A stretch of DNA of 64,000 bases, taken from Raillietiella orientalis (taxonomy: Eukaryota). Below the pieces are notes generated by a model that saw only the letters and a program-made list of their open reading frames with translations, made no database searches and was not told where the DNA came from. The translations under genes and the position numbers were made by a program. The stretch lies in the NCBI GenBank assembly GCA_036172245.1, contig JAYWIR010000002.1, positions 6,138,001 through 6,202,000 on the forward strand. The letters run 5' to 3'. Of this stretch, positions 2,061 through 49,382 are shown one piece after another (position 1 is the stretch's first letter; each line of letters begins with the position of its first letter).

Positions 2061-3525
2061 AGTCCAGCGCAGGCCTTGACCACGTCTGGAATTAGGCGGG
2101 AGAAGGAGGCATAGAACACTGGGTGACCAGGGCTTCAGCGAAGAATACAAATTCGCTTTCAGGGGAGAACCACGCCCTTTCGTCAGAGCTTCAATTGCAA
2201 CAGCGACCTGCGGAAGAGTGGGAGTTGCGCGTCCCAGCCGCGGCAGCTACGCAGGGCATATGGACCGCCGTTCGGCGTCAGCGCACACCCTCATTGCGAC
2301 TCTCCTACATTCCCCCGCGCTGCCCAGGATGACGATGAAGCTGGAAAACGCCCAAGGCAACCAGCGCGTCATCATCCCGACAACACCCAGCCGCCAGATC
2401 CACCTACCTCTTCCACGTGAACCCCCGCGGGAGGTTACCGAAGAGTAAACCAGGGAGCCCCTCGGCCACTCCTCCCGCCATTCTGTGCGCGTGCGCTCAT
2501 CTTCCGCGCTTCCAACTCAGTGGCTCATCCTTCCATGGAGCAAGCGGCACTGGGAAGATGTTAATAGGAGGAAGCAAGAGAAGAATGGGATGAAGGGAAA
2601 AAGAAGAGAAGGAGGAAGGAGAGGAAAGGGACACCGTTATACGCCTCATTTCGGGAATCGGGCGCATCTCGCCATGCCCACCAGCTCGGCACAGGAGATT
2701 GCGGTTTCGGAAGAGGGCGGTAGCGTCGGAGGCCCTCGCTACAGTGCACCTTTCCTTCGCAGCCCTTTTGCGGCTCAGCGAACGACCCAAGGGGGATGAG
2801 CAATGGCTCTAAGCGCTCGCACTACCTTCGTAACTTCCAGGCTCACGCAAGCACCACCACCGCCACCCTTCTGTATGGGGGGAAGGCGAGGAAAGAGGGT
2901 GCCAAGGTAGCCTCCTTCCGCGCGGAAGGAGAGAACTTGCGATGGGTGACAGAGCCTCCATGTGAGCCTAAAGAGGAGGGCCTCGCGGCGGGACGAGACG
3001 ATGCGTCAGCGTTATTTTCTCGTTCGTCAGTTCCCAGCCATCGGGTCAGGTCATGAAAGGGACGGATCATGTGCTCCAGGGCCGAGGACCGTGGGCCGTG
3101 GGTCGGGACGACGGACCTCCCGGGAGAGGCGTCGAAGAGACTAGCGGCCCCCTCGTGGGCGACGCTAGTGGTTCCGCTGCTGCAGGTGGTGCCATAGCTT
3201 CGCCCTGGTGGACGCCTCTCGAGGATAAAAAAATGGAAAGAGTGAGCAGGCGATGGAGTCCCGCTTTCTTTCTCCCTGAAGCAGCCTCTTTCCGCGACGG
3301 CGGCCGCGTTGCCTGGATACGCACTGAGAGGTCGCCTGAGCGCCGTCGCTCCGCCTGACTCGCGTGGCGGCGGGGAGCGCGACACTTCACCCTCGCCATC
3401 CCCGCCATCCTCTCCCGAGGGAGCCGCGCACACTCGTCCTCGGGGATGCTCCCCCCCGCACACCCGCTCTCGCGCGCACCGTCTCCGCTCCCTCCCTCCC
3501 GTCCCGTTGCGTCGTCCCCGGAAGT

Positions 3526-4003
3526 TTATAAATAGACGGTTCTCCCGAGCGTCCCGGAGCCCACGGTGCTGAGTGTGCTGCCGCCCCCTGCCTGCTCCCA
3601 GGATCTGCGGATGCTCCCTGGAAGCTCTCCGATCTCCCCCCCTCCTCGTTGCTCAGAGGACCGGAGGGGAGGAAGAGGAGGAGAGGAGGCTGCAAACTCC
3701 CGCCGCTGCTTGCCTCGCCTCATGGGCCGCTCCGGGAGGGCGGGAGCATCGGAAGGGAAGAGGCGTGACCTCTCCCTCCCCCCCTTCCTGTGAAAACCCC
3801 CCCTGCCGCTCCAGCATGGCGCCTCTCGGAAGGAGAGCGACGGGACGCAGGGAGCGAGAGGGCCGACGACCCCTCCCTCCCCCCCGCCCTCGAGGCCGGC
3901 GCAGCCTCTCACATGGGCGCGACCGTGCCTGCGCAGGCCGCAGGGGAAGGCTGCTGTCGACCTATGGAAAGGGGCCGAGTATTTTCGGTATGACTAAAAA
4001 TAG
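3526..4003. promoter_or_regulatory. Pair of MEF2 consensus sites (TTATAAATAG 3526-3535, CTAAAAATAG 3994-4003)
   Basis: AT-rich 10-mers in very GC-rich DNA, both followed by ACGG. Confidence 0.4.
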
Positions 4004-4586
4004 ACGGCTGGGGCGTTCCCGTCCGACGGGAGTTGTGGGCGCCCGTGCCGGCGCTCAAAGATTGGGGGGAGGCGGGGGAAGAAGGAGAAGGGGGAGCCAT
4101 GCAGGGCAACTCGCACTGCGAGGAGCGTGCGGAGACCGCCCACGCCGCGCCACTGGCGGGAAGGCTGAGCGCTCAGGGATGTGTAGGGCCGGAGAGGCGC
4201 CTGCCGCAGTCACCTCTAGAGAAATCGGCGTCCCACCCGCCCTCAGGACTTCGGGGGAGATCCCGGAGCCCTGCGCGAAAATCCTCACGATTGGCCACGC
4301 GTCCCAAGCCCCAAGCCCGCTCCTCCCATGGATTCACCCAGATCAGCAGCCGCGCTGCGACTTCCAAGGAGACGCGGAGGCGGGGAGTCCCGCCGTGGCG
4401 GCTCCGCAAGGAGAGGACCGCCTCCTACGTGGCTGTCGCGCCTTTGCTTCAAGGCGACGGAGGAAGGGCCGTGGCTTAGGCCAACCCGCGCCATGGAGAA
4501 CCATACCAGAAACCCCCGCCGTGTCAGGGATTTCACTCAGCTCCGGGAGGACACTCCCTGTCCCATATTCCACGAACAGCAGACGA

Positions 4587-4876
4587 AGCAAACCTACCGC
4601 TACCCATTCTCAATTAGCAGAGCACCTACTGTTCGCTGTTCTCACCAGCAGAGCACCTACCGCTACTCATTCTCACCGACAGCTTACCTATCGCTACCCG
4701 TCTTCAACAGCAGCATGCCTACTGCTCTCCGTTCCCACCTTCAGCGCATCTGTTATCTGGAAAGGCGCACCATTTCCGTCCTCATGTTCCTTTCCATTTC
4801 TGTATGTGCGCTGTCGATGAGAAGGGTAGCAGTAGGTGCTCTGCTGGTGAGAACGGGTAGCGATAGGCTCGCACTG
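4587..4876. repeat. 31-bp minisatellite, 5 direct units (4587-4739) and 2 inverted units (4816-4876); foldback arrangement
   Basis: Consensus approx. AGCAGAGCACCTACCGCTACCCGTTCTCACC; reverse complement of 4816-4876 gives two units. Confidence 0.85.
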
Positions 4877-5508
4877 GACAGTTCTGGTGCCTGGTGTCCA
4901 GACGGCGCCTCCGGCGACTTCCTCCACACGGAGGTTTCCAGCCTCCTCCCTCTGACATGAGAGGCCGCGAAGAGGATGAAGATAAATCACGTGTAATCAC
5001 ATGTGCATCCTGGGAGTTGGGATCACTACAAATCAAGTGTGATTCATGGGACAGTCGAGTGCTAACTCACTCCCCCATTGGGAGGGAAGACGTTCTGGAA
5101 GAATCTGGCGCCGCCGCTCCCCGGCAAGGGAGAGTTCGGGAGGAAGGCGCGAGCGGACGCGGAAGAACGGAAGGGGAAGCCGCCACGCTCTCTTACAGGA
5201 AACGCCAAGGGAGGACGGCCGGCGACCCGCGCAGAGACACCCTGTCGTCCGCTCGGAAGCCGCCTGAGACGCACCGACGCGCCCGGCTGCTCCGAGACGG
5301 GGAAACCCGCGCACCCGGAAGAGACTTCACATTCGCGTCTTCCGCCTCCTCTTCCTCGAAGGGGCGAATGGCGCGGAGGGGCTTCCTGCGAGCGGGGATC
5401 CTCGCCTACTCTGCCTCCTTGTAGTCCCTCTTTTGCGATCGCTCAAGGGATTGCGAGCGAGATGCGATGTTCCCGCAGCAACGAATAGATTTGAAACTGG
5501 AACTCGAT

Positions 5509-5835
5509 GTGGTGCTCCAGGCCATGAGAAAATCAATGGCAGCGGACATCTTCAGTGGTGCTCCAGAATGGCGGAAAAGAGATTGCAGGAAGCTCTTTCT
5601 GTGGCGCTCCAGGGTGAGGAAAAAGCGATGGCAGTGGGCGTCTTGTATAATGCTCCAGGATGACGGAAAAGAGATTGGCAGTGGGCGTCCTGTATAATGC
5701 TCCAGGATGACAAAAAAGAGATTGGCAGTCGACGTCTTGCGTGGTACTCCAGAATAACAGCTGAAAAGAGATAACAGCGGACGTCTTCCGTGGTGCTCTA
5801 GGGTGGCAAGAAAGCTATGGATGTGGACGTCTCCC
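5509..5835. repeat. 46-47-bp minisatellite, about 7 diverged units
   Basis: Unit TGCTCCAGGATGACGGAAAAGAGATTGGCAGTGGGCGTCCTGTATAA; two central units nearly identical. Confidence 0.85.
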
Positions 5836-5949
5836 CCTTACAGATCTTCTGCTGAAGCACCAGGGGGGAAAGGCGAAGGAAGAAGGACAGGTACAGGCAA
5901 TCAGCTCCCCTCTTTTTCTCCGGAGGATCGTCAGCTTCAGCCAGAACTA

Positions 5950-6830
5950 TCTTCCCGGAATCCCTAGGAATCTTGCTATCGGTGAAGGGAAGAGAGTGAA
6001 AGGGACCCTCCAGGCGATGAGAGGAGCGCATCCGGAGGGGAACGGTACGCTCCAACGTACGGGAGATCCGCTGGAGGTTGGGACGCCACCCGTGACGAAG
6101 GAATACCCTCGCGAACGGCGACATTTCTTTTCATCCTCGAGTAGAGGATGAATGAGGGAGAAGCAGATACGGCGATGACGGAGTTAGATTTCCTGGTCAT
6201 CGGTCATGACCCTCGACACATCCTTTGAGAATCCAAGGACGAGCAAATCGTTCACGAGTGCTCATGAACGCGGTCGTCGCGTTTCCGAGTAGCATGCATC
6301 CCTTTGTGTGACGGCGCGTCCTCCTCCCGCTCTGAGCAGGACCAAGTAGCAACGGCGACTCCACGTCGGTCGCCACCTGGGACCAAGGTCTCCCTTCTCC
6401 CGGCGCGTCGTTAGGGAAGGGGGAAGGAAGAAGGCGCCCGCGCCTCCGGGTGCGGGGTCGCAGGTTCCGCTAATCCGCTTCCCGGTAAAGGGGTCTGGGA
6501 AAGCGCGTTTCCCGGAAGGGCGGGGGAGCCTGGACGCCGCCCGAAGGCACCCTTAGGAAAGCGGCGCTGTGTGGCAGGGGGAGCGAGTGGTGCTCGGGGA
6601 AGAGAGTGAGGGAATGTGGGGTCCTTCCGTTGCCGGGCCATCCCGTGAGGTGGCTACCCGTGAGAGCGACAATCGATCTCGCCCTTCCCCGTGATTGATA
6701 TGGCAGTCACGTTGATTGAAGGAGTCACTGAAACAGATATCATTTATCTTGTTCTCTTTCTCCGCGACAAGAATGTCATCCGCATACAAAAATAGCTCGG
6801 ATGTAATCAGTCGTAACCAAACAACTTGTA
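5950..6830 (-). mobile_element. Decayed non-LTR reverse transcriptase (CR1/L2-like)
   Basis: SELFLYADDILV (YADD catalytic motif, about 6800-6765); downstream FSLIHPLLE (cf. SLIRPxLEY, about 6160-6135). Confidence 0.55.
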
Positions 6831-8599
6831 TCTCGTCCTGTACCGCACATCTTGGACTTTGTAAAGGCTGCGTGATACCCGCATCTCAAGCAGGATGTGG
6901 AGACCCCGAGCGAACACGCAGGATCGTGCGGTGCTGCAACTACCGACGCCGGCACGGCTGGCTCGGAAGACGCGCGTTCCTCTCCCGTGTGATTGAATTA
7001 CGAGCTCGCCCGCGGCCTCCTAGAAGGAAGGAAGAAAAAACGGGAAAGAAAGGAAAAGAAGGGAAGGGGGACACATCCTACTTGGACCATTGTTTAGTAA
7101 AAGGCGAAAGAACTGTGCGTTGTTTAGGGGATAGAGGGAAAGACGCCGACGTCCCCTGCGCTTCTCTCAGGAGCCAGGCATCCCTTCATCCTTTTTCGGA
7201 GAGTGCGAAGGAACCGGGACGCTCGGTGGGACGGGTTTGGAACCGCGCACGGGCAGGTCGCGCGGCTTCCCGCCTCTTTGCGCGCGCGTGGTGTGCGGTG
7301 CGCTGGGATAGCGAGCTCTGGAGGAGCAAGGGGCAGACGAGACCGAAGATGAGTCAGCGGCCGGCAAGGCGCCGGCGCCCCCATTGGCCTCTTCTTCCCT
7401 CTCTCCCTTCCTCCTTCCTTCCTTCCTTTCCCCGATGGTTTTCCTGGATCCGGCGGCGTGCCTCCACTCCCAGAATCCAGCAGAGGGTTCGAAAGCATCC
7501 ATCTCGGAGAAGGAAGAAAAAAAAATCGATCCAACCGACCATCCCCAGCTGCGCCCTACGCAATGCACCTTCAATTAAAGGGCATCGTCGATAAGGATGC
7601 CGTGTTCATCACCATTACCGCGCCGTCCCATCAAAGACGGGCTAATCCCGAGCTAATGGTCCCACGCCCGATTTATGATTCGATCCCTGAACCCCTCTTC
7701 TCCCTTTCTCTCCCTCCGCTCCGCATTTTCACCTTCAGTCTCACTTCCCGCCCCCAGTTTTCCCCTTAGCACCGTTAATCTCCGCATCCACAAATAACTC
7801 ATAAATTGCCAGACTGGGGATCAGGCATCAGCCCAACTTCTACGCGCTCCTCCCCCTCTTCTGCTCCCTCCAGGACGAAATGCCCCCTCATCCAGGCACG
7901 AGCACTCTTCCCGCCTGCCTGAATCTTTTTCCGATCCCCCCCCCCTCATCCTTACTTTCCCCGTCCCTATCAGACCAATTACGACTTTAGCATCAGAAAC
8001 AATGCCATTCCATGAGCGGAGACGCACGCACGCACGCACGCACGTGCGTGCGTGCGTGAGTGGGTTGGCGCGTAGGTGGATGTCCAACTGCATATAGTAG
8101 ACTTTTGCGGGATGCGTGTCCCATTTCCAAGGAAAGAGGCAGCTTTCACACTTCATCCCTGAGACCATTGTCTGGGCTCTCCTGGTTCACCCTTCCATTC
8201 CACGCCACCCAGCCTCGCCATCCACCTACCACCCATCTTCGGCGATCGCTGCATCGCCTTGTTCTTCGCAGTCCCTTCGAGTTTAACATTCCGACCAAGG
8301 ACAGCGCAAGGAACGAGCCAGGAGTCACGTGCAATGGCTCCACGCATCGCTGCAGACACGGAAGTACCACCGCTACCGCTGCGCCCCATGTCTCGGATGA
8401 TACAACCGGAAATCCACTTGCCGCCCCCGCTGAACCGCGTGCCATCAACCCTACCGCTCACATTCGTTATCAACCCCTCAGCAAGCCGTCAAACCACATG
8501 CCACCCGAACCACCAAATCAAAGTCCACCCTTCCCGGGGTGTACAGCGACCCCCTGCCTCCATCACGACTGCATCCCAGCCCTGATGCATAGGGCATTC

Positions 8600-9050
8600 C
8601 AAACTAAGGTGGCATCTGGGGTCGAAGCCTACCCACCAAGTCCACTTCTGGGTGCCTGCTGGAACTTCAAGGTCCAGAACGCGCTCTCTAGCTGTGGTGT
8701 AACTGCAAGAGCTCCGACGCGGCTTAACAGGAAGACCCGCCTCCTCAAGTAGCGCTCGGTGGCGCAACGGGGTGGTCTAATCTGGCGGAGAATTCGTCCC
8801 CCTTGTACTGCAAACTCGCTAGAAGCCCTACTTGAGTCCCTCGCATCTGGAAACGCATATCCCTCTCTGGCCCAGAGGCAGCCGCACCGAAAATCCAGTA
8901 GTACCGCTTCGGATGACGGAGGATCGTGCAATTCAGACGCAATTCCTCCTACCCAAGCAGCCTATTGGCATCCGGCGAGCGGATGTGCGTCTTCGGAGAG
9001 CCCTTCGCATCCCAACGCTGGACCGGAAGATCGAGACCAACGGAGGCGCG
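8600..9050 (+). mobile_element. Possible decayed LINE RT C-terminal region
   Basis: KPYLSPSHLETHIPLW (cf. RPHLEYAxPVW) followed by AIQTQFL...LRRALRIPTLDRKI. Confidence 0.3.
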
Positions 9051-26369: not shown

Positions 26370-26790
26370 CTCACGCACGTGCACCTACGTCCGTCCCTCT
26401 ATAAATAGACGCGCGTGGTCGCATGGAAACGCGACAAACAAGCGGAGACGTGCACCTCCGCGCCGAAAGACGAGGCTTTCGAGAAATCTGTAACGGTGCG
26501 TGCGTGCGTATGTACGTAGGTGTGCGCACGCATTCGTGTGTACACTCAGGCGTACATCTCCGTGTATGCCTGCATATGCATCGTTCTCCACGTGAGCACG
26601 TTCCGTATCGTGTGTACGTGCACCCACATAGGTACGTTTGTACGTGAGTACACACACGCGCGCGTGGATTCCTGTTCGGATGTTTACGCGCGTGTACATC
26701 CGCACGTGTATGCAGAAACGAGTGGCTAGTGCGGGATCTGAATGGGAGCGCGAGTAGGTGAGTGTACGTGAGTATGTTCGGGAGTGTATG
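26370..26790. repeat. Low-complexity alternating purine-pyrimidine region (GT/AC/GC/TA)
   Basis: e.g. GTGCGTGCGTGCGTATGTACGTA, GTGTGTACGTGCAC; similar patches at 8022-8062 and 34500-34660. Confidence 0.7.
26399..26408. promoter_or_regulatory. MEF2 consensus site CTATAAATAG (also TATA-like)
   Basis: Exact CTA(A/T)4TAG in GC-rich DNA 0.85 kb upstream of the CRE palindrome. Confidence 0.45.
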
Positions 26791-27262
26791 GTTCGCGTCG
26801 CGCTCGCTGTGAGGCATCCCTGGCGCGCTTTGCGGTGGCCAACCTGCGGCGTGCCCCGAGGGCATGGCAGTACACCTCCTTAAGAGACCATGTTCTCTAC
26901 CCGCACGCTCTCAAACCAGGGCAGCGTCCCCCGATCGCGCGCCTCCGCCGCCTCGTAGAGGCAGGGCGAAGGAAAGGAGGGTGGAATGGGGAAGGAGAAC
27001 TTATAGTACTCCCTCGTGGGGGGCAGAGCACGGCTTAAGAAGAGGGCGGATAATGCCTTCCCGGCTCGTCGCTCCCCCTGCCGAGTAGGGAGGAGGTCGT
27101 GCCCTTACAAGATCACACCGAAGAAGCGTGGGTGCGCCACTCATCTTTCTCCCTCCATCTCCCTTCCCCCACGATGGAGCCGTCCCCGATGACCTCTTGT
27201 TCAAGGAAGGGGACGCCTTTCCCATTCCGAGGCAGCCCAGAGCGAACCACCCTCCGAAGAAG

Positions 27263-27342
27263 GCGCTGCCGCTGCAGCCACGAGGCGCTCTGACGTCACG
27301 CGCGCGTGACGTCAGAGCGCCTCGTGGCTGCAGCGGCAGCGC
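27263..27342. promoter_or_regulatory. 80-bp perfect palindrome with two consensus CRE sites (TGACGTCA at 27291-27298 and 27307-27314)
   Basis: 27263-27302 is the exact reverse complement of 27303-27342 with no spacer; about 1.1 kb upstream of the PDE ATG. Sequence is directly seen; regulatory role is inferred. Confidence 0.8.
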
Positions 27343-28449
27343 TTTGAAGCCGGGTTCGCTTGGCCGGGGAAAGGATTAGGGGATAGGATGGAAGGAGTGG
27401 GAGCCGGATTCCGCGAGCCCTCCGGCACTGCCGCAAGGGAGAGGGAAGAGAAACGCTTGGCGCTGCCCCCGTTTCCCTGTTGCGAGCAACCGGGATGCGC
27501 AGGCGGGAGGCGAGGAAGCGGGCGGCGGACGAGGGCAGTCGAGGCGACGCTCCTGCCTTCGTCTCCTTCCCTCCCTCCCTCCTGCTGCGCGCGCGCGCGC
27601 TCCTCCCTCCTTCCCCTTCCGTCCCATCCCCGCTCGCGCGTGCGCGCGCGCACCCCGCGATCGCGGCTCGCGATCCGCCGCCGCCGCGCGCGGGTAGCGC
27701 AGTGCCGCTGCTGCTGCTGGCCCGCTCGACGCCGCCGCTGCTGCTGCCCCCCTGCGACGAGCGCGCGCGGTAGCAACTGCCCCCACGTACCCACCCACCC
27801 AGGGCGACCCGTGCAAAGTGTGAAAAAAAGGGAGCGACCCGCGACGTCAGCCGCCCCGGGCGCCGCCGCGGCAGCACCGGGCGGAGTCGAGGAAAAGGCA
27901 GAGGGCAGGAGGTGGTGCTGTTGGTGGCTGCGCTGGTGGTGGTGCGGAAGGAGCAGAGAGGCGCCCGCCGCGGCGACAGCAGGACGTGGGAGCAGAGAGG
28001 AGGACAACCCGCGGACACCCGCGGCCTCCTTGGTCTCCGCCGCCTCCCCCGCGACACTCCCCTCGCCGTCGCTACCCCCCGGTTCCTGGAAGGTCGCCTC
28101 TCCACTCCACCCCCCCGGGACAGCTGCCGTCGCCGCGCCGGCCCCGCCCCCTTTGCTTCCCGCCCTTCCGGGGTCGCGCACTCGCCGCCATGACGGCGGC
28201 GGCGGCGGCGGAGCCGGAGGAAGCGGCGACGAGGGCGACGGCAGCCACGAGGAAGACGACGATGATGATGATAATGACCACGACGAAGGCTCTCCCCTGC
28301 TGCTGCTGCTAGAAGACGCGACACCGCCGACGACCCATGCGCGGCGCTGGCTGTCCCCATGCCCGGCAGCACTAGCCGCGCAGCAGCAACAGCAGCAGCA
28401 GCAGCGTCCCTTCCCCCCGAGTGTCCCCACCACTGCCGCCGCCGCCGGC

Positions 28450-28587
28450 ATGACGTCCTGCGGCTGCGGCGGCGACCCCCGCGGCTGCTGCCGCATTCCC
28501 AAAGGTGGCGGCAGGCGCTCCGGCAGAATCTGGAGCTTCCTCAACAGAGTCTTCTGCCTCAGGAAGAACGGCGAGCGGAACTGCACC
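28450..28587 (+). CDS. PDE7: Probable first coding exon of the PDE7-like gene (MTSCGCGGDPRGCCRIPKGGGRRSGRIWSFLNRVFCLRKNGERNCT)
   Basis: ATG with G at -3, 46 codons, canonical donor ACC|GTAAGC (phase 0), GC/CpG-rich surroundings; joins in frame to 29125-29188 and 47296. True start may lie further upstream (frame open from 27388). Confidence 0.7.
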
Positions 28588-29124: not shown

Positions 29125-29188
29125 AGGGAGGCCGCCCCCGCCGAGGAACGGTCCAGCCAGTACGCCATCCACGCTGCCGCTACCCTGG
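29125..29188 (+). CDS. PDE7: Probable second coding exon of the PDE7-like gene (REAAPAEERSSQYAIHAAATL)
   Basis: Strong acceptor CTTTTCTGTTCCAG and donor TGG|GTGAGT; 64 nt converts phase 0 to phase 1, exactly what the exon at 47296 (TC AAC) requires. Confidence 0.7.
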
Positions 29189-34130: not shown

Positions 34131-37100
34131 GAGGTTGGCGAACATCCATCCCCTCGCCCTCCCGTCCCCCTCCTCCCTACCCTCTTCCCGAAAAGGTCGA
34201 GCAAGCGACGGGTGGCAAGGAATCTCGCGGCGGTTCGCGAGATGGCGCGCGCCTCTTTGCTCTTCCGCGTCGTCCTTCGCGCATGGCGAGCTTTTCGGAT
34301 CTTTTTCCTATCCACGGTGATGAAGGAAGGGGGAGAGAGGATGAGAGAGAGAAATAAGCGACGCGTTCGCAAGAACCTTCCCGATTTTCTTCGAGATTCC
34401 CTTTTTTTTTTTTTTTTTTTTTCCTTTCGTTCCGCTTCAGGACTGGATGGATGGATGTTTTCCCCTTTTCCTAAACAGCGGGCAATGTGACTTCGCCGGG
34501 TGTGCACGCGGGCGCATACGCGATGGCCGTACACAACTGGGCGTGCGCGTGCTGCGCGCACGTTTCTGCACGCGCGCACGCAGTGTACGGAACAGGTACG
34601 TCTGTACGTACTCGAGCACGCGCGGGAAATGTACACATAGACAAACTGATGCGCACGCGATCCTTGCCCTCGCGTTTCGTTTATTTATTTATTTATTTTC
34701 CTTTTTCTTTTTCGGGGGGGGGGGGGACTCAGTTTCTGGTTTAATCTAATTACAGTGATAAATAAATTCCCGGAAAAGGACCGCCGGTTACCATGGAGAA
34801 CGGCTTGCTGTAGCACACGCTTGGGAATGAGATTAGAAAGTATCGATCAGAAAACATACATTTAGTGTTGTGATTCGAGGAATCGCCGCTCGTTTGTTTG
34901 CCTACTTGCCCTGCAGTGTCTGTGCTCCACCGGTTGTTTGAGGGACAAATATTGTTTCTGTCCGCAGCAAATTTGTCGGTGCAGAGCTAACAAAAGTGCG
35001 TTTGGCGTGCACGCGGCGCGGCGCCGTTCCCTCGAACGTTTTTCCAAGATGGCGCATTTTGCACGCGGACGTTCTGTTCCGCTCCTCACTGCCGGAATTC
35101 CGTCCTCCACTCCATTGTTGCGCTTCGACCCCGCAGGAAACTTCCAGATCTTCGTGCCCCCCCCCTTCCTCCTCCTCCTCCTCCTCCTCCTCCTCCTCTG
35201 CACGCGCGCGCGACGCAGTACGGTGGCGGGGAAGAAGAGCCGTTTGGTTGCTCCTCCATGGAACACTCAGGACAGTCGAGCATGCGTGCGCTTCTCTCTT
35301 ATCCTTTCCATCGGCAAAGCCCCGCGCAACGCAGTCATGGCCTTAGGAAAGGAATCTCGGGGTTCCACCTGCACCCCAAAGGCGACTGTTTGCAACGGGG
35401 TGTTGGTGCGATGAGGTTTTCGTTTTTATTAAGGACGTTCATCCGGCAATTATGATCGCACAATGCATCATCCGTATTTGTTGATGGACTCCTCTCTCAG
35501 GATGCCATGAAGTTCGACATAAATGTTGAAAAACTGCCAATGAAAAAGCGCTCGAATGCAGCAGATCCAGCATGCGCAACAAAAGCATCCTTATCTCCGA
35601 CGACGGGGCCGCAGAACGCTCACGTCTACATTCTTCGGTCGCTTTACAGCATCTTAGCCCATACGATCAGCACGGTTCTGTATCTTTCGGTGCCAAGGGA
35701 ACCTTCGCTGCCGAAACGTAACCGTAGACCGCATCTTTGCTTCCTCACGTTGCCCTTTTGGAAAGAAAGACAGGAAAAAAAAGGGGGGGGGGGAGCAAGT
35801 TCAAACGAATTCGATATTGGCAAACCTCTCTTCAGGCACCGGGAACACAAAATGTGTTACAAGGAAACATCCGTCTAAGTGAAAACACCACCGTTGCGCG
35901 AGTGCTGAGCTCGGTAAACCGACTTCGCGCCTCCCCTTGAGCACCACCACCACCGGCCTTCTGTAGGTTGCGGTCACGGTCCAGCCGAAGAGTGAGGTGC
36001 AGCCGCCCACCACGCACGAGGGCAGCTGTGATGGCACCCTTTCACTCTGACAAGCCCTTAAAATTACGGAGCAACGTGAAGATCAGTGTCTCGCTACTCT
36101 CCAGAGAAATCAATGAATTTTCGAAATCTTTGAAACGGTCTTCAGACGCGCTCTCCCCTTTCCCCCCTTTCCCCCCCCCCCCCCCCCCATTCGCCCCAGA
36201 CTGCTAGGGAAAAAAAAAGAAAAAAGATAAAGTCAAGGCGAGTTGACGCCGAAACTGTTGAAAAGTTCGACATGGCCAAACTCCCGGATATACTGAAAAT
36301 TGAACTTTTCGCGGAGTCCTTTGTAAACCTAACAGAAATTCCGAATGCCTTTTTGACCAGAGAAAAGAGTGGGGAAAATTTCAGTTCAAAAGGTATGTTT
36401 TTTGCTCTCCGTCCCTGGGTTTTCTTCCCTCTTCTTTTTTTGCATAAAGTGAAACTGAGTTTTTTCTTTACGTGTGTGTTTTTTGTTGTTTTGTTTTGCT
36501 TTTGCTTTTTTTTTTTGGGGGGGGGGGGGGATGTTTTCACGGTGTTCATCGTCGCACGGAAACCATGGAGGGATTTCCAGTAAAGCAGTCGCTGTGGTAG
36601 TGGGCTCAGTGTCCAGAATTAAGTAAACATACATTTACGCGTGTTATTCATCATCAGTCTATGTTACATCCAGATAAAAGCGAAACAAAAAGTATGGCTT
36701 TGAAAGCGGAAAAGCAGTCACTTACAGCTGGTACATACGATGGACAAAAACCGTCCTCTGTGAGTACATTGCTATCTCGTGTAAGTTGGACCTCTGGAAT
36801 CGCAAGGTGCATTGCATGAAACGCTTCCTAATGGAAATGCTATATTTGTTTGTCTTTTTTGTCCTTTTTTTTTTTTTTTTCCCCTGCCGAACGCATTCTG
36901 AAAAGTTTATTCGTATCAAATCGCACTGTGCACCAGAAGAGAAGATCTCAGCCTGCTCTTCCGTCTTGCCGGAGGAAGGCGCCGGTAATTCTCTGAAGAT
37001 TTTCTCGTGTCTTCGGTTGCTTCACACATCGGCTGAAGTGTAAGATCTTCACTTCTCGTCACGATGCAGTGATTATCGATAAGAACAATTACGTAGTGTG

Positions 37101-46731: not shown

Positions 46732-46786
46732 GAAAACCGGAGCGTACGGTCGCGGGAGATCTTCGCGACCGTACGCTCCGGTTTTC
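46732..46786. other. Inverted repeat with perfect 23-bp arms and 9-nt spacer
   Basis: GAAAACCGGAGCGTACGGTCGCG-GGAGATCTT-CGCGACCGTACGCTCCGGTTTTC. Confidence 0.85.
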
Positions 46787-47295: not shown

Positions 47296-49382
47296 TCAAC
47301 TGCGATGACCTCAGCGGCGTCAAGTCTTCGATCCTGGGGAGCATGAGCTTCACGCCCTCGGAGCAGATGCTGATCCGCCTCGTCGCCGACCGCGGAAGCA
47401 ACCCCATGGGTCGCTTCCTGACCCTACGGCGACGTCGGAAGCGGCGCCTGGTGACGCGGTCGCTGACGGTGCACAAAGCCCTGGTGGACGACGTCCTGCA
47501 CGCGCAGTGCCAGGTGAGGTTCGCAGAGCGAAAGCGTTTCCAAGTGCGAGAGCGCGGCCCGCGGCCCCCTCCCCCAGCTGATGCTGAATCGGATCGGAGA
47601 CTGGAACTTCAGTGCTTTCACCCTGGACTACGTCGCTGGAGGTTTGGTGCTTGGGCGTGCCCGCGTTGCCCGCTGCCGCTTCTCCCCCCCCCCTCTCTCC
47701 TCCGTAGGGCATTCGCTGCCGATGCTATGCATGCACTTGTTCCACGAGCACGGGCTGCTGCGCCACTTTCGGATCGACCCCGTGCGGGCGTGGCACTTTT
47801 TCGGTCAGTAGCCTCGCGGTGGCCAGGGAAGCGCGCAGCACGCAGCGCGGTTCGCGCCGTAGTTCTTGTGGAGGAGGGCTACCGCTCCAACCCCTACCAC
47901 AACTCCATTCATGCCACCGACGTCACCCAGGCGATGCACTGCTACCTCCACGAAGACAAGGTCGGGACGGCGGGTGCCCGCGCCGTCGCCGCAACGACCC
48001 CTCCCCCTCTCCTGCTTTGCAGATCCTTCGCCACCTGCAGCCCCTGGAGAAGATTGCGGCGCTGATCGCGGCCATGTCGCACGATCTCGACCACCCCGGG
48101 GTCACCCAGTCTTTCCTGATCGCGACGCGCAACCACCTCGCTTCCCTGTACAAAGTAGGCAGACTCGCCAGCGGGAAGGGGGACGCGCGCGCGCGCGGGG
48201 AGGAGGAGGAACCGTCGCGCGGAGGGACGCGCGCATCTTGCAGAACGCCAGCGTGCTGGAGAACCATCACTGGCGCTCATGCATCGGCTGCCTGAACGAG
48301 AGCTGCGTGCTGGACTCCCTGGACGCCGACCAGTGGAACGCCATGCTGGACATCGTGCGCAGCCTCATCCTCGCCACCGACATGGCGCGCCACCAGGAGT
48401 TCCGCGACGGCCTGCAGGTTTGTCTTCGCGGCCGCCACTCACCCCACCTATTTCCGGCTTGCGCAGAGCAAGCTGCAGATAGGGAAGCTGGACGCCAGCC
48501 ACTCCAAGCTGCGCTGCTTCGCCCTCTGCATCGCCCTCAAGTGCGCGGACATCTCCAACCTGTGCCGCCCTGGGCCCATCAGCCAGCTCTGGTCCCGCCG
48601 CGTGTGCGATGAGTTCTACCGGCAGGGCGACTACGAGAGGGCTCTCGGCCTGCCCGTGACACCCATCTGCGACCGGACCGTGTCTTCCATGCCCTCCATA
48701 CAGATAAGTGCGTGCCCGGAGGGCGGCAGGGGAGCCCGTTCTACCCGGGCCTCCGCCGCGGGGCTTTGCAGGGTTCCTCCACGGCATCGTGCGGCCCCTG
48801 TTCGAGCTCTGGGACGCCTGGCTGCAGTCCCCCCTCTCCGCCGCCATGATGGCCAACCTGCGGGGCAACGAGCGCTACTGGCGCCACCAAGCGGGCGACT
48901 CGCTGGAGGCCGCGAGGCAGCAGCAGCAGCAGGCGGCCGAGCTGCTGAGGCCGGTGCCCGCCTCCGCGGATGCGCGGCGGTACTCCGTCCCCGTGCCCTC
49001 CCTCGTGTTGCGATCTCCCCCGCGGCGGCGCGAACGGCGCCACTCCGACTTCCTGGTGGTCCCCGTCGAGCCGCCCTCGGAGGCTGCTGACGAGCTCGCG
49101 CCCGAGCTGAGCATCGCCACGTTCAGCGGCGGGACCACCACCACGGCCCCGGGCCGCGACCCAGCCCAGCCCTCGCCGACAGCAGCAGCCTCCTCCCCGG
49201 CCGCGAGCGATGACGACCACGACACCGCCGCCGCCTCCGGGCGCCTCCGTTTCCAACGCTCGTCCGAGGCCGCCAGCCCCCCCCAACAGACCCTGCTCCG
49301 CAGGGGATCCCTGCCCGCCGTCCCGGAAGCGGAGGACGAGAAGCGCCGCCGCCGCTCGGAGCCCTACAGCGTGACAGGTTAG
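47296..49382 (+). CDS. PDE7: Class I cAMP phosphodiesterase, PDE7-like, exons 3-10 (catalytic domain and C-tail): 47296-47513, 47578-47641, 47708-47803, 47863-47960, 48023-48154, 48244-48417, 48467-48707, 48772-49382
   Basis: Spliced translation keeps frame across seven GT-AG introns (64, 66, 59, 62, 89, 49, 64 nt). It contains [28 protein letters not shown] (metal-binding HD signature), [39 protein letters not shown] and [14 protein letters not shown] and [10 protein letters not shown] are characteristic of PDE7 as I recall vertebrate PDE7A/B. Confidence 0.95.

Follow-up and report, generated by a model that had tools for sequence, protein, structure and literature searches.

A perfect 80-bp palindrome with twin CREs, a probable product of local fold-back copying, upstream of a PDE7-like gene

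Introduction

How does a perfect 80-bp palindrome come to carry two CREs, i.e., two cAMP-responsive sites, upstream of a putative phosphodiesterase gene, and does it act there as an ordinary duplex or as a structural switch? The question arises from a window of 64 kb (the whole stretch of DNA analysed), for which an original prediction had described a duplicated CRE element acting in negative feedback on cAMP. A literature search that was not aimed at arthropod PDE7 promoters turned up no description of twin consensus CREs within a long, perfect palindrome at the promoter of a PDE gene, and absence from print is not claimed. The available part of PMC7504236 makes no mention of CREs in PDE7 promoters.

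Results

The palindrome and its surroundings

The assembly sequence contains at 27263-27342 a perfect palindrome made of two 40-bp arms with a spacer of 0 and a GC content of 75%. The object announced by the original prediction, i.e., 80 bp, zero spacer and exact reverse-complement arms, is thus confirmed as real in the assembly, and its length is far beyond chance expectation. The two TGACGTCA motifs, announced 8 bp apart across CGCGCGCG, were found as described (Table 1), the latter occupying 27299-27306. TGACGTCA, the CREB/ATF consensus, occurs in the 64-kb window at these two sites only. The centres of the CREs are 16 bp apart, i.e., 1.52 turns, so that two dimers could occupy roughly opposite faces of the helix. 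It must be stressed that, when one arm of an inverted repeat contains a CRE, the other necessarily contains one too; the pair is thus one event and not two lines of evidence.

Table 1. Coordinates of the palindrome, of its sites and of the neighbouring features in the window
Feature	Position	Strand	Basis
Palindrome, left arm, 40 bp	27263..27302	+	Direct sequence comparison
Palindrome, right arm, exact reverse complement of the left arm	27303..27342	+	Direct sequence comparison
Extended 86-bp unit, the arms reaching 43 bp when one G-T mismatch is allowed; GAAG on both sides (27256-27259, 27346-27349)	27260..27345		
CRE 1, TGACGTCA	27291..27298		Sequence; CREB/ATF consensus
CRE 2, TGACGTCA	27307..27314		Sequence; CREB/ATF consensus
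Alternating purine-pyrimidine centre, 12 bp, containing (CG)4; hard to melt, weak Z-DNA candidate	27297..27308		
Weak and degenerate inverted symmetry of the flanking sequence, with an inverted match of 8 bp ~10-20 bp beyond the arms	27123..27475		
AT-rich 10-mer that fits a TATA box as well as a MEF2 site, ~855 bp before the palindrome	26399..26408		Match to consensus
Putative coding exon 1 of the PDE7-like gene, encoding a Cys-rich N-terminus, with a GT donor at phase 0	28450..28587	+	
Putative second exon, phase 0 to 1, by which the conserved exon at 47296 is again read in frame	29125..29188	+	
Candidate alternative first coding exon, probable phase-1 end	36272..36392	+	Sequence reading
Eight exons: conserved pre-catalytic segment, PDEase_I domain and tail of the PDE7-like protein	47296..49382	+	

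As single-stranded DNA, the palindrome folds with z = -10 (0/200 shuffles equally stable), and as RNA at -102 kcal/mol with z = -11.6 (no shuffle as stable, n = 200). Its central 10 bp amount to -18.3 kcal/mol, i.e., they are within the hardest 0.74% of the 10-mers of the window, a TA run being at -6.5. (CG)4/(GC)4 runs occur 30 times in the 64-kb window. The hexamer CACGCG, which is the class C site bound by repressors of the Hairy/E(spl) type, is present on both strands of the centre (27297-27308) and overlaps the end of each CRE.

A BLAST search with the palindrome and its flanks (301 bp) against the 210-Mb genome returned its own locus only, with no second haplotype copy; a search of the genome with a 24-mer from the arm, up to 3 mismatches being allowed, matched the two arms only. 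This search for further copies had been proposed at the outset, and its outcome is that the palindrome is not a multi-copy MITE. The palindrome is interior to a 7.45-Mb contig and unique sequence resumes on each side. The direct repeat GAAG around the 86-bp unit has a null rate of 4.6% (a match of at least 4 bp in 922/20000 null draws), and a direct repeat of at least 4 bp was found at 0/25 other inverted repeats tested.

Among the nine flank lengths tried, the inverted symmetry of the flanks is best at 140 bp (19/1,442 random sites, 5/1,500 shuffles). It appears at 140-160 bp, and there is none at 80-100 bp (662/1,454 random sites; 265/1,472 shuffles). The same test applied to other inverted repeats reaches p 0.05 in 1 case out of 23. 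This symmetry is possibly a remnant of an older, larger inverted repeat, a suggestion and not more. An inversion of strand asymmetry at the palindrome was also sought, and no clear switch was seen.

The PDE7-like gene

Motifs typical of PDEs are grouped at 47.9-48.7 kb of the + strand, the catalytic exons being localized at 47.6-49.4 kb. The gene model comprises ten exons with GT-AG boundaries and encodes 611 aa with zero internal stops; the metal-binding His/Asp motifs and the invariant Gln are intact, and the PDEase_I domain (PF00233) is above the cut-off. When one 73-aa catalytic exon is compared with solved structures, PDE7A is the best match (E 1.5e-14; PDE4C, 4.3e-11). Its top database relatives are insect and crustacean proteins with 60-72% identity, several of them named PDE7A/7B-like; the host is thus an arthropod that is not close to any of them. 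By these sequence features the downstream gene qualifies as an intact PDE7-like class I phosphodiesterase, PDE7 being its nearest characterised relative. Its product would hydrolyse cAMP specifically, as the family does.

The first two exons (Table 1) are predicted from splice signals, phase and likeness to the Cys-rich N-termini of homologues. The local alignment of the 611-aa model with a homologue from a barnacle extends as far as the Cys cluster at the N-terminus. The homology of exon 1 is not significant in BLASTP (E = 1.9), and exon 1 is outside the top 15 of the homologue-profile search; its block score ranks 7/2,909. A «Met plus three Cys» filter, which was picked after exon 1 had been seen, leaves 1/26,732 background positions. 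A search for closer protein relatives of the N-terminus gave none at E 0.001, and a second one gave 17 weak matches, chiefly single-exon fragments.

The end of the palindrome is 1,107 bp from the putative start codon, the catalytic exons lying ~20 kb further downstream. The original location of the element upstream of a cAMP phosphodiesterase holds in so far as an intact PDE7-like gene is present downstream, while the link between the palindrome and the catalytic exons depends on the predicted exon at 28450 and on an 18-kb intron.

Other features of this gene are as follows: (i) the start of the candidate exon at 36272-36392 is loosely like an alternative N-terminus of insect homologues; (ii) at 48705-48773 the spliced model has Arg-Phe after the invariant Gln region, where homologues have Gly-Phe, and this may be real or may reflect a misplaced splice site; (iii) a second single-copy inverted repeat is present at 46732-46786, ~510 bp upstream of the exon at 47296, with perfect 23-bp arms and a 9-nt spacer that is itself nearly palindromic.

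The upstream region

No divergent coding gene was recognized upstream by Pfam: 0 matches for the 128 ORFs of at least 105 aa in 1-27400 and 3 overlapping ORFs. At gathering thresholds, the 64-kb window contains 0 Rfam families. The AT-rich 10-mer at 26399-26408 is a TATA/MEF2-like site, matches of the MEF2 type being found 8 times per 600 kb. A further CRE variant is localized at 27842 in a GC-rich region. Both are consistent with an activity-regulated promoter, yet they are not rare.

A similar TATA/MEF2-like site is present at 3526-3535; like that at 26399-26408, it is followed by ACG in GC-rich surroundings, and it may mark another promoter. An ATG at 27388, 45 bp past the palindrome, is in frame with the putative exon 1 with no intervening stop; the 354 extra codons of the 27388-28587 frame are of low complexity, and long frames also exist on the opposite strand. 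At 5508-5820, units of 46-47 bp are repeated about six times in a degenerate tandem array, and short dispersed repeats are found at 4594-4867, with inverted copies 100-160 bp apart that are 83% complementary over ~40 bp.

Elsewhere in the genome, a pKID domain above the cut-off, with the RRPSY motif, is encoded on contig C28, so that a PKA-activated CREB is present in this genome.

Inverted repeats in the genome

Inverted repeats with a spacer of at most 12 nt were counted in a 600-kb sample of the large contigs, made up of 60 segments of 10 kb each at round coordinates. Arms of low complexity (trinucleotide entropy < 2.8 bits, as in TA runs) were removed prior to any counting. The sample contains 15, 7, 4, 2 and 1 perfect complex inverted repeats for minimum arms of 14, 16, 18, 20 and 25 bp, respectively, and 0 for arms of at least 30 or 40 bp. 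After local shuffling of the sample, 0 remain with an arm of at least 14 bp. The genome-wide extrapolation is ~5,300 (2,900-8,700) at an arm of 14 bp and ~700 (85-2,500) at 20 bp; arms of at least 40 bp are expected 2 times with a geometric tail and 25 times with a power-law tail.

Of the 26 inverted repeats in the 950 kb examined, the palindrome is the longest (next arms 28 bp) and is one of the two that are spacer-less. Perfect repeats of a similar kind, with spacers of 1-12 nt, are distributed among many contigs. With no arm of at least 30 bp in 600 kb and 2/26 repeats without spacer, the palindrome is an outlier of its class; this class is common, and the palindrome is not a unique kind of object. 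The richness of the genome in inverted repeats, from which the second CRE follows as an automatic product of the palindrome, had escaped the original prediction. Its view of a duplicated element agrees with these results: local duplication is the likely origin.

CpG observed/expected is 0.92 in the first 200 kb of the genome sample. One sampled stretch (L023:1178-1326) contains a degenerate inverted repeat with 70-bp arms, 11 mismatches and a 9-nt spacer, which is either a small hairpin element or a member of the class of greater age.

Single and twin CREs in the genome

The genome contains 4,955 CREs against 1,445-2,497 expected, i.e., about one per 42 kb, so that any one site need not be functional. 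Pairs of CREs within 30 bp number 23 against 3.6 by chance (8 against 2.4 for a control motif), and pairs at 31-61 bp number 5 (control 5). All 28 pair loci were examined: 2 are in perfect arms of at least 14 bp, i.e., the palindrome and a repeat on contig C33, both with arms of at least 23 bp, and two further loci are in arms of 11-12 bp. For arms of at least 20 bp, two CRE-bearing repeats against 0.28 expected (P = 0.033) hint at bias or selection; for arms of at least 14 bp, 1.2 are expected by chance and the P of two is 0.34. No twin full CRE was found near the 9 other PDE loci among the matches listed.

The half-unit made of a CRE and CGCG occurs 133 times against 28-43 expected (control: 36 against 32-50). 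This excess is compatible with the descent of the palindrome from an ordinary promoter site, and may also be a mere reflection of GC-rich promoter context.

The other loci deserve a short description. The repeat at C33:1123551-1123605 (L105:1497-1551) has a twin CRE, 23-bp arms and a 9-nt spacer; it is localized in AT-rich DNA. From C1:3658279 onward (L115:276-460), a twin CRE in 11-bp arms is followed ~150 bp downstream by a third full CRE, and this cluster is a candidate CREB enhancer by its sequence. At C34:488942-488976 a twin CRE adjoins an ETS-like CCGGAAG motif, a combination that resembles the vertebrate ETS-CRE composite. ORFs near the other CRE-bearing repeats gave 0 Pfam matches for the 148 longest of 650.

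The 24-bp core of the palindrome is also present in four contigs (L106-L109) of one metagenome assembly, with arms of 12-14 bp. These contigs form a repeat family whose copies are 75-88% alike and dense in CRE and CGCG words, with only 24-30 bp in common with the window. The core is thus able to arise independently. Conservation of the element across animals was considered and rejected, since L106-L109 match nothing beyond the core; this is read as convergence.

Discussion

Origin of the palindrome

Local fold-back copying of an ordinary cAMP-responsive site is the most likely origin of the palindrome. The successive steps would be: (i) an ancestor with a single CRE followed by CGCG, the half-unit that is over-represented in the genome; (ii) a nascent or resected 3' end that folds on a self-complementary CG run, the (CG)4 centre being the likely primer, and copies ~40 nt of its own strand, either by snap-back end joining or by a template switch during replication; (iii) the doubling of the CRE, which the geometry itself shows, copying having given two full sites 16 bp apart. 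In a variant of step (ii), a template switch would perfect the core of an older quasi-palindrome. The features of a snap-back product are found together at this locus, i.e., single-copy perfect arms, no spacer, a self-complementary central primer and a genome-wide class of similar repeats, and the same process is plausibly the source of the thousands of shorter inverted repeats of the genome. Since 0 differences are seen in 80 sites (divergence of at most 3.7% per site), the duplication, or the last homogenisation of the arms, is recent. Homogenisation of repeat arms by template switching is described in excerpts of PMC3820800 and PMC8604942.

Possible function of the twin CREs

The reading that we prefer, and to which we give about an even chance, is that a promoter CRE was recently doubled, by snap-back duplication or by homogenisation of the arms, which produced a B-form twin CREB site for negative feedback on cAMP. 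CREB dimers would bind one or both CREs in duplex DNA, and the PKA-phosphorylated pKID would raise PDE7 transcription, the enzyme then lowering cAMP. A consensus CRE and a CREB-type activator are both present in the genome. From the sequence, the palindrome would belong to the promoter of the PDE7-like gene, bind CREB and induce the gene; CRE-driven feedback on cAMP is plausible. According to the available part of PMC13095499, vertebrate PDE7 is specific for cAMP, and dopamine D1 receptors control PDE7B in the striatum. The host being an arthropod according to its PDE homologues, the regulation of vertebrate PDE4 and PDE7B is an analogy only.

The first alternative is that of a neutral passenger, i.e., a real snap-back duplication that chanced to include a CRE and has no role in PDE7 regulation. 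CREs and inverted repeats are both common in this genome, 1.2 CRE-bearing repeats with arms of at least 14 bp are expected by chance, very many windows were scanned, and the C33 repeat provides a twin CRE in AT-rich DNA with no Pfam match among the longest nearby ORFs. On the contrary, the palindrome is at most 1.1 kb from the putative start of one of about ten PDE genes (among the matches listed) in 210 Mb, in a GC-rich region with the CRE variant at 27842 and the MEF2/TATA-like site. On balance we hold this alternative to be unlikely.

According to another possibility, which is improbable, an old inverted repeat is actively homogenised at its apex, i.e., at the palindrome, which recurrent template switching would keep perfect and selection would retain; a supercoiling-sensitive cruciform or Z-DNA in the PDE7 promoter would then re-orient two CREB dimers and couple PDE7 transcription to cAMP feedback. 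In a broader form of this view, the high rate of snap-back repeats would offer this genome a general route to the doubling of palindromic transcription-factor sites.

A related proposal, which develops the possibly structure-switchable element of the original prediction, is that of a selected structure switch: negative supercoiling driven by transcription would extrude a cruciform (or convert the centre to Z-DNA) and alter CREB geometry or nucleosome occupancy, as proposed for the proenkephalin enhancer (PMC1524902, in part). The 40-bp arms are perfect and spacer-less, and the repeat can form a stable hairpin. With assumed constants, the equilibrium threshold of the cruciform is at sigma -0.02 to -0.06, and longer arms favour in theory the cruciform over Z-DNA at equilibrium (excerpts of PMC10783518). 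The weak flank symmetry could moreover correspond to an old repeat whose core was kept perfect. The nature of the centre is opposed to this proposal. According to the accessible sections of PMC1851657, extrusion at physiological salt begins with the opening of the central 8-10 bp, and an AT-rich centre is called a prerequisite in vivo; here a readily opening AT-rich centre is not found, the centre being in the top 0.74% for duplex stability. Besides, (CG)4/(GC)4 runs are frequent in the window. It had also been claimed that both CREs re-form as duplex in the cruciform. This is right, since perfect arms re-form one fully paired CRE each, two in all; extrusion thus neither creates nor destroys sites, and the number and pairing of CREs remain the same. 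The GC-rich centre, by blocking extrusion, would also explain the persistence of the palindrome. Lagging-strand hairpins are possible, as a source of instability and not of regulation (PMC7999016, in part). A structure switch at this locus is consequently quite improbable, and the palindrome probably functions as a normal double helix.

An artefact of assembly or polishing, i.e., a fold-back chimera or an imperfect repeat homogenised by mis-mapped reads, would also give zero spacer and zero mismatches. Such an origin is unlikely, to the point of deserving little weight: the palindrome is in a contig interior between unique flanks with no second haplotype copy, an internal 40-bp inversion would require two strand switches, perfect repeats with 1-12-nt spacers are dispersed over many contigs, and the outer G-T mismatch and the flank remnant resemble evolved sequence.

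It is very unlikely that the palindrome acts as an RNA hairpin, i.e., that it is transcribed (as part of a 5' leader or of the first intron if transcription starts near 26430, or within an upstream RNA) into a 40-bp dsRNA stem for Dicer-2 or ADAR or for a scanning block. The stability of the RNA fold, the TATA-like site at 26400, the consensus donors at 26592-26809 and the in-frame ATG directly after the hairpin are in agreement with it. Conserved RNA stems typically have G-U pairs or bulges, and the 40 bp are here without any of them; no Rfam match was obtained, the filter used gave no strong acceptor in 27343-28460, and such a leader would contain many upstream ATGs.

Finally, it is highly improbable that a MITE-like hairpin element was inserted here with a target-site duplication of 4 bp and that the palindrome is its relic: the GAAG on each side of the 86-bp unit and the presence of the same 24-bp core in an unrelated repeat family of another assembly speak for it, and the absence of another copy, both in BLAST and in the 24-mer search with 3 mismatches allowed, the 4.6% null rate of the direct repeat with 0/25 among other repeats, and the mere 24-30 bp shared by the metagenome repeats with the window speak against it.

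If the preferred reading of a fold-back duplication is true, this locus is a clean natural case of the one-step gain of a homotypic pair of transcription-factor sites, at the promoter of a cAMP feedback gene little studied in arthropods. If the structure switch were true, an 80-bp element with two consensus CREs would be a far simpler test system than the enkephalin enhancer, and would serve the long-standing problem of a regulatory role of cruciforms at eukaryotic promoters in vivo. In both cases, the class of thousands of short-spacer perfect inverted repeats provides a measurable background for such claims.

Comparison with known systems

Spiro and McMurray (1997) reportedly proposed a role of a cruciform of the proenkephalin enhancer in cAMP induction. 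The enkephalin element folds into an imperfect hairpin, in which mismatches reportedly give rise to a new CREB site; a site change of this type is impossible in the perfect palindrome described here. In the human proenkephalin CRE enhancer, an inverted repeat overlaps cAMP-responsive sites and a cruciform role in cAMP induction was proposed (PMC1524902, in part); this 23-bp duplex-to-hairpin/cruciform switch is the nearest precedent (PMC1524902 and excerpts of PMC3176155). The present palindrome differs by its length of 80 bp, its perfection, its two full consensus CREs and its GC centre.

Human PATRRs are likewise long, symmetric and spacer-less palindromes. They differ in having 190-600 bp and AT-rich centres (excerpts of PMC1851657), as compared with 80 bp, 75% GC and a (CG)4 centre in the present case.

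The promoters of egr-B in insects and crustaceans are marked by two conserved CREs near the start of an activity-responsive gene (PMC6140108, in part), a likeness with the present locus. In contrast with egr-B and vertebrate PDE7B, the CREs are here mirror copies within one palindrome.

A likeness in mechanism exists with the products of snap-back SD-MMEJ and with quasi-palindromes, where a short inverted primer allows self-templated synthesis of a longer inverted repeat; in Drosophila end joining, snap-back synthesis makes inserts that are part of longer inverted repeats (available text of PMC5728401). As compared with these products, the 40-bp arm of the palindrome is long for the class found in this genome, and the mechanism proposed here would be the same.
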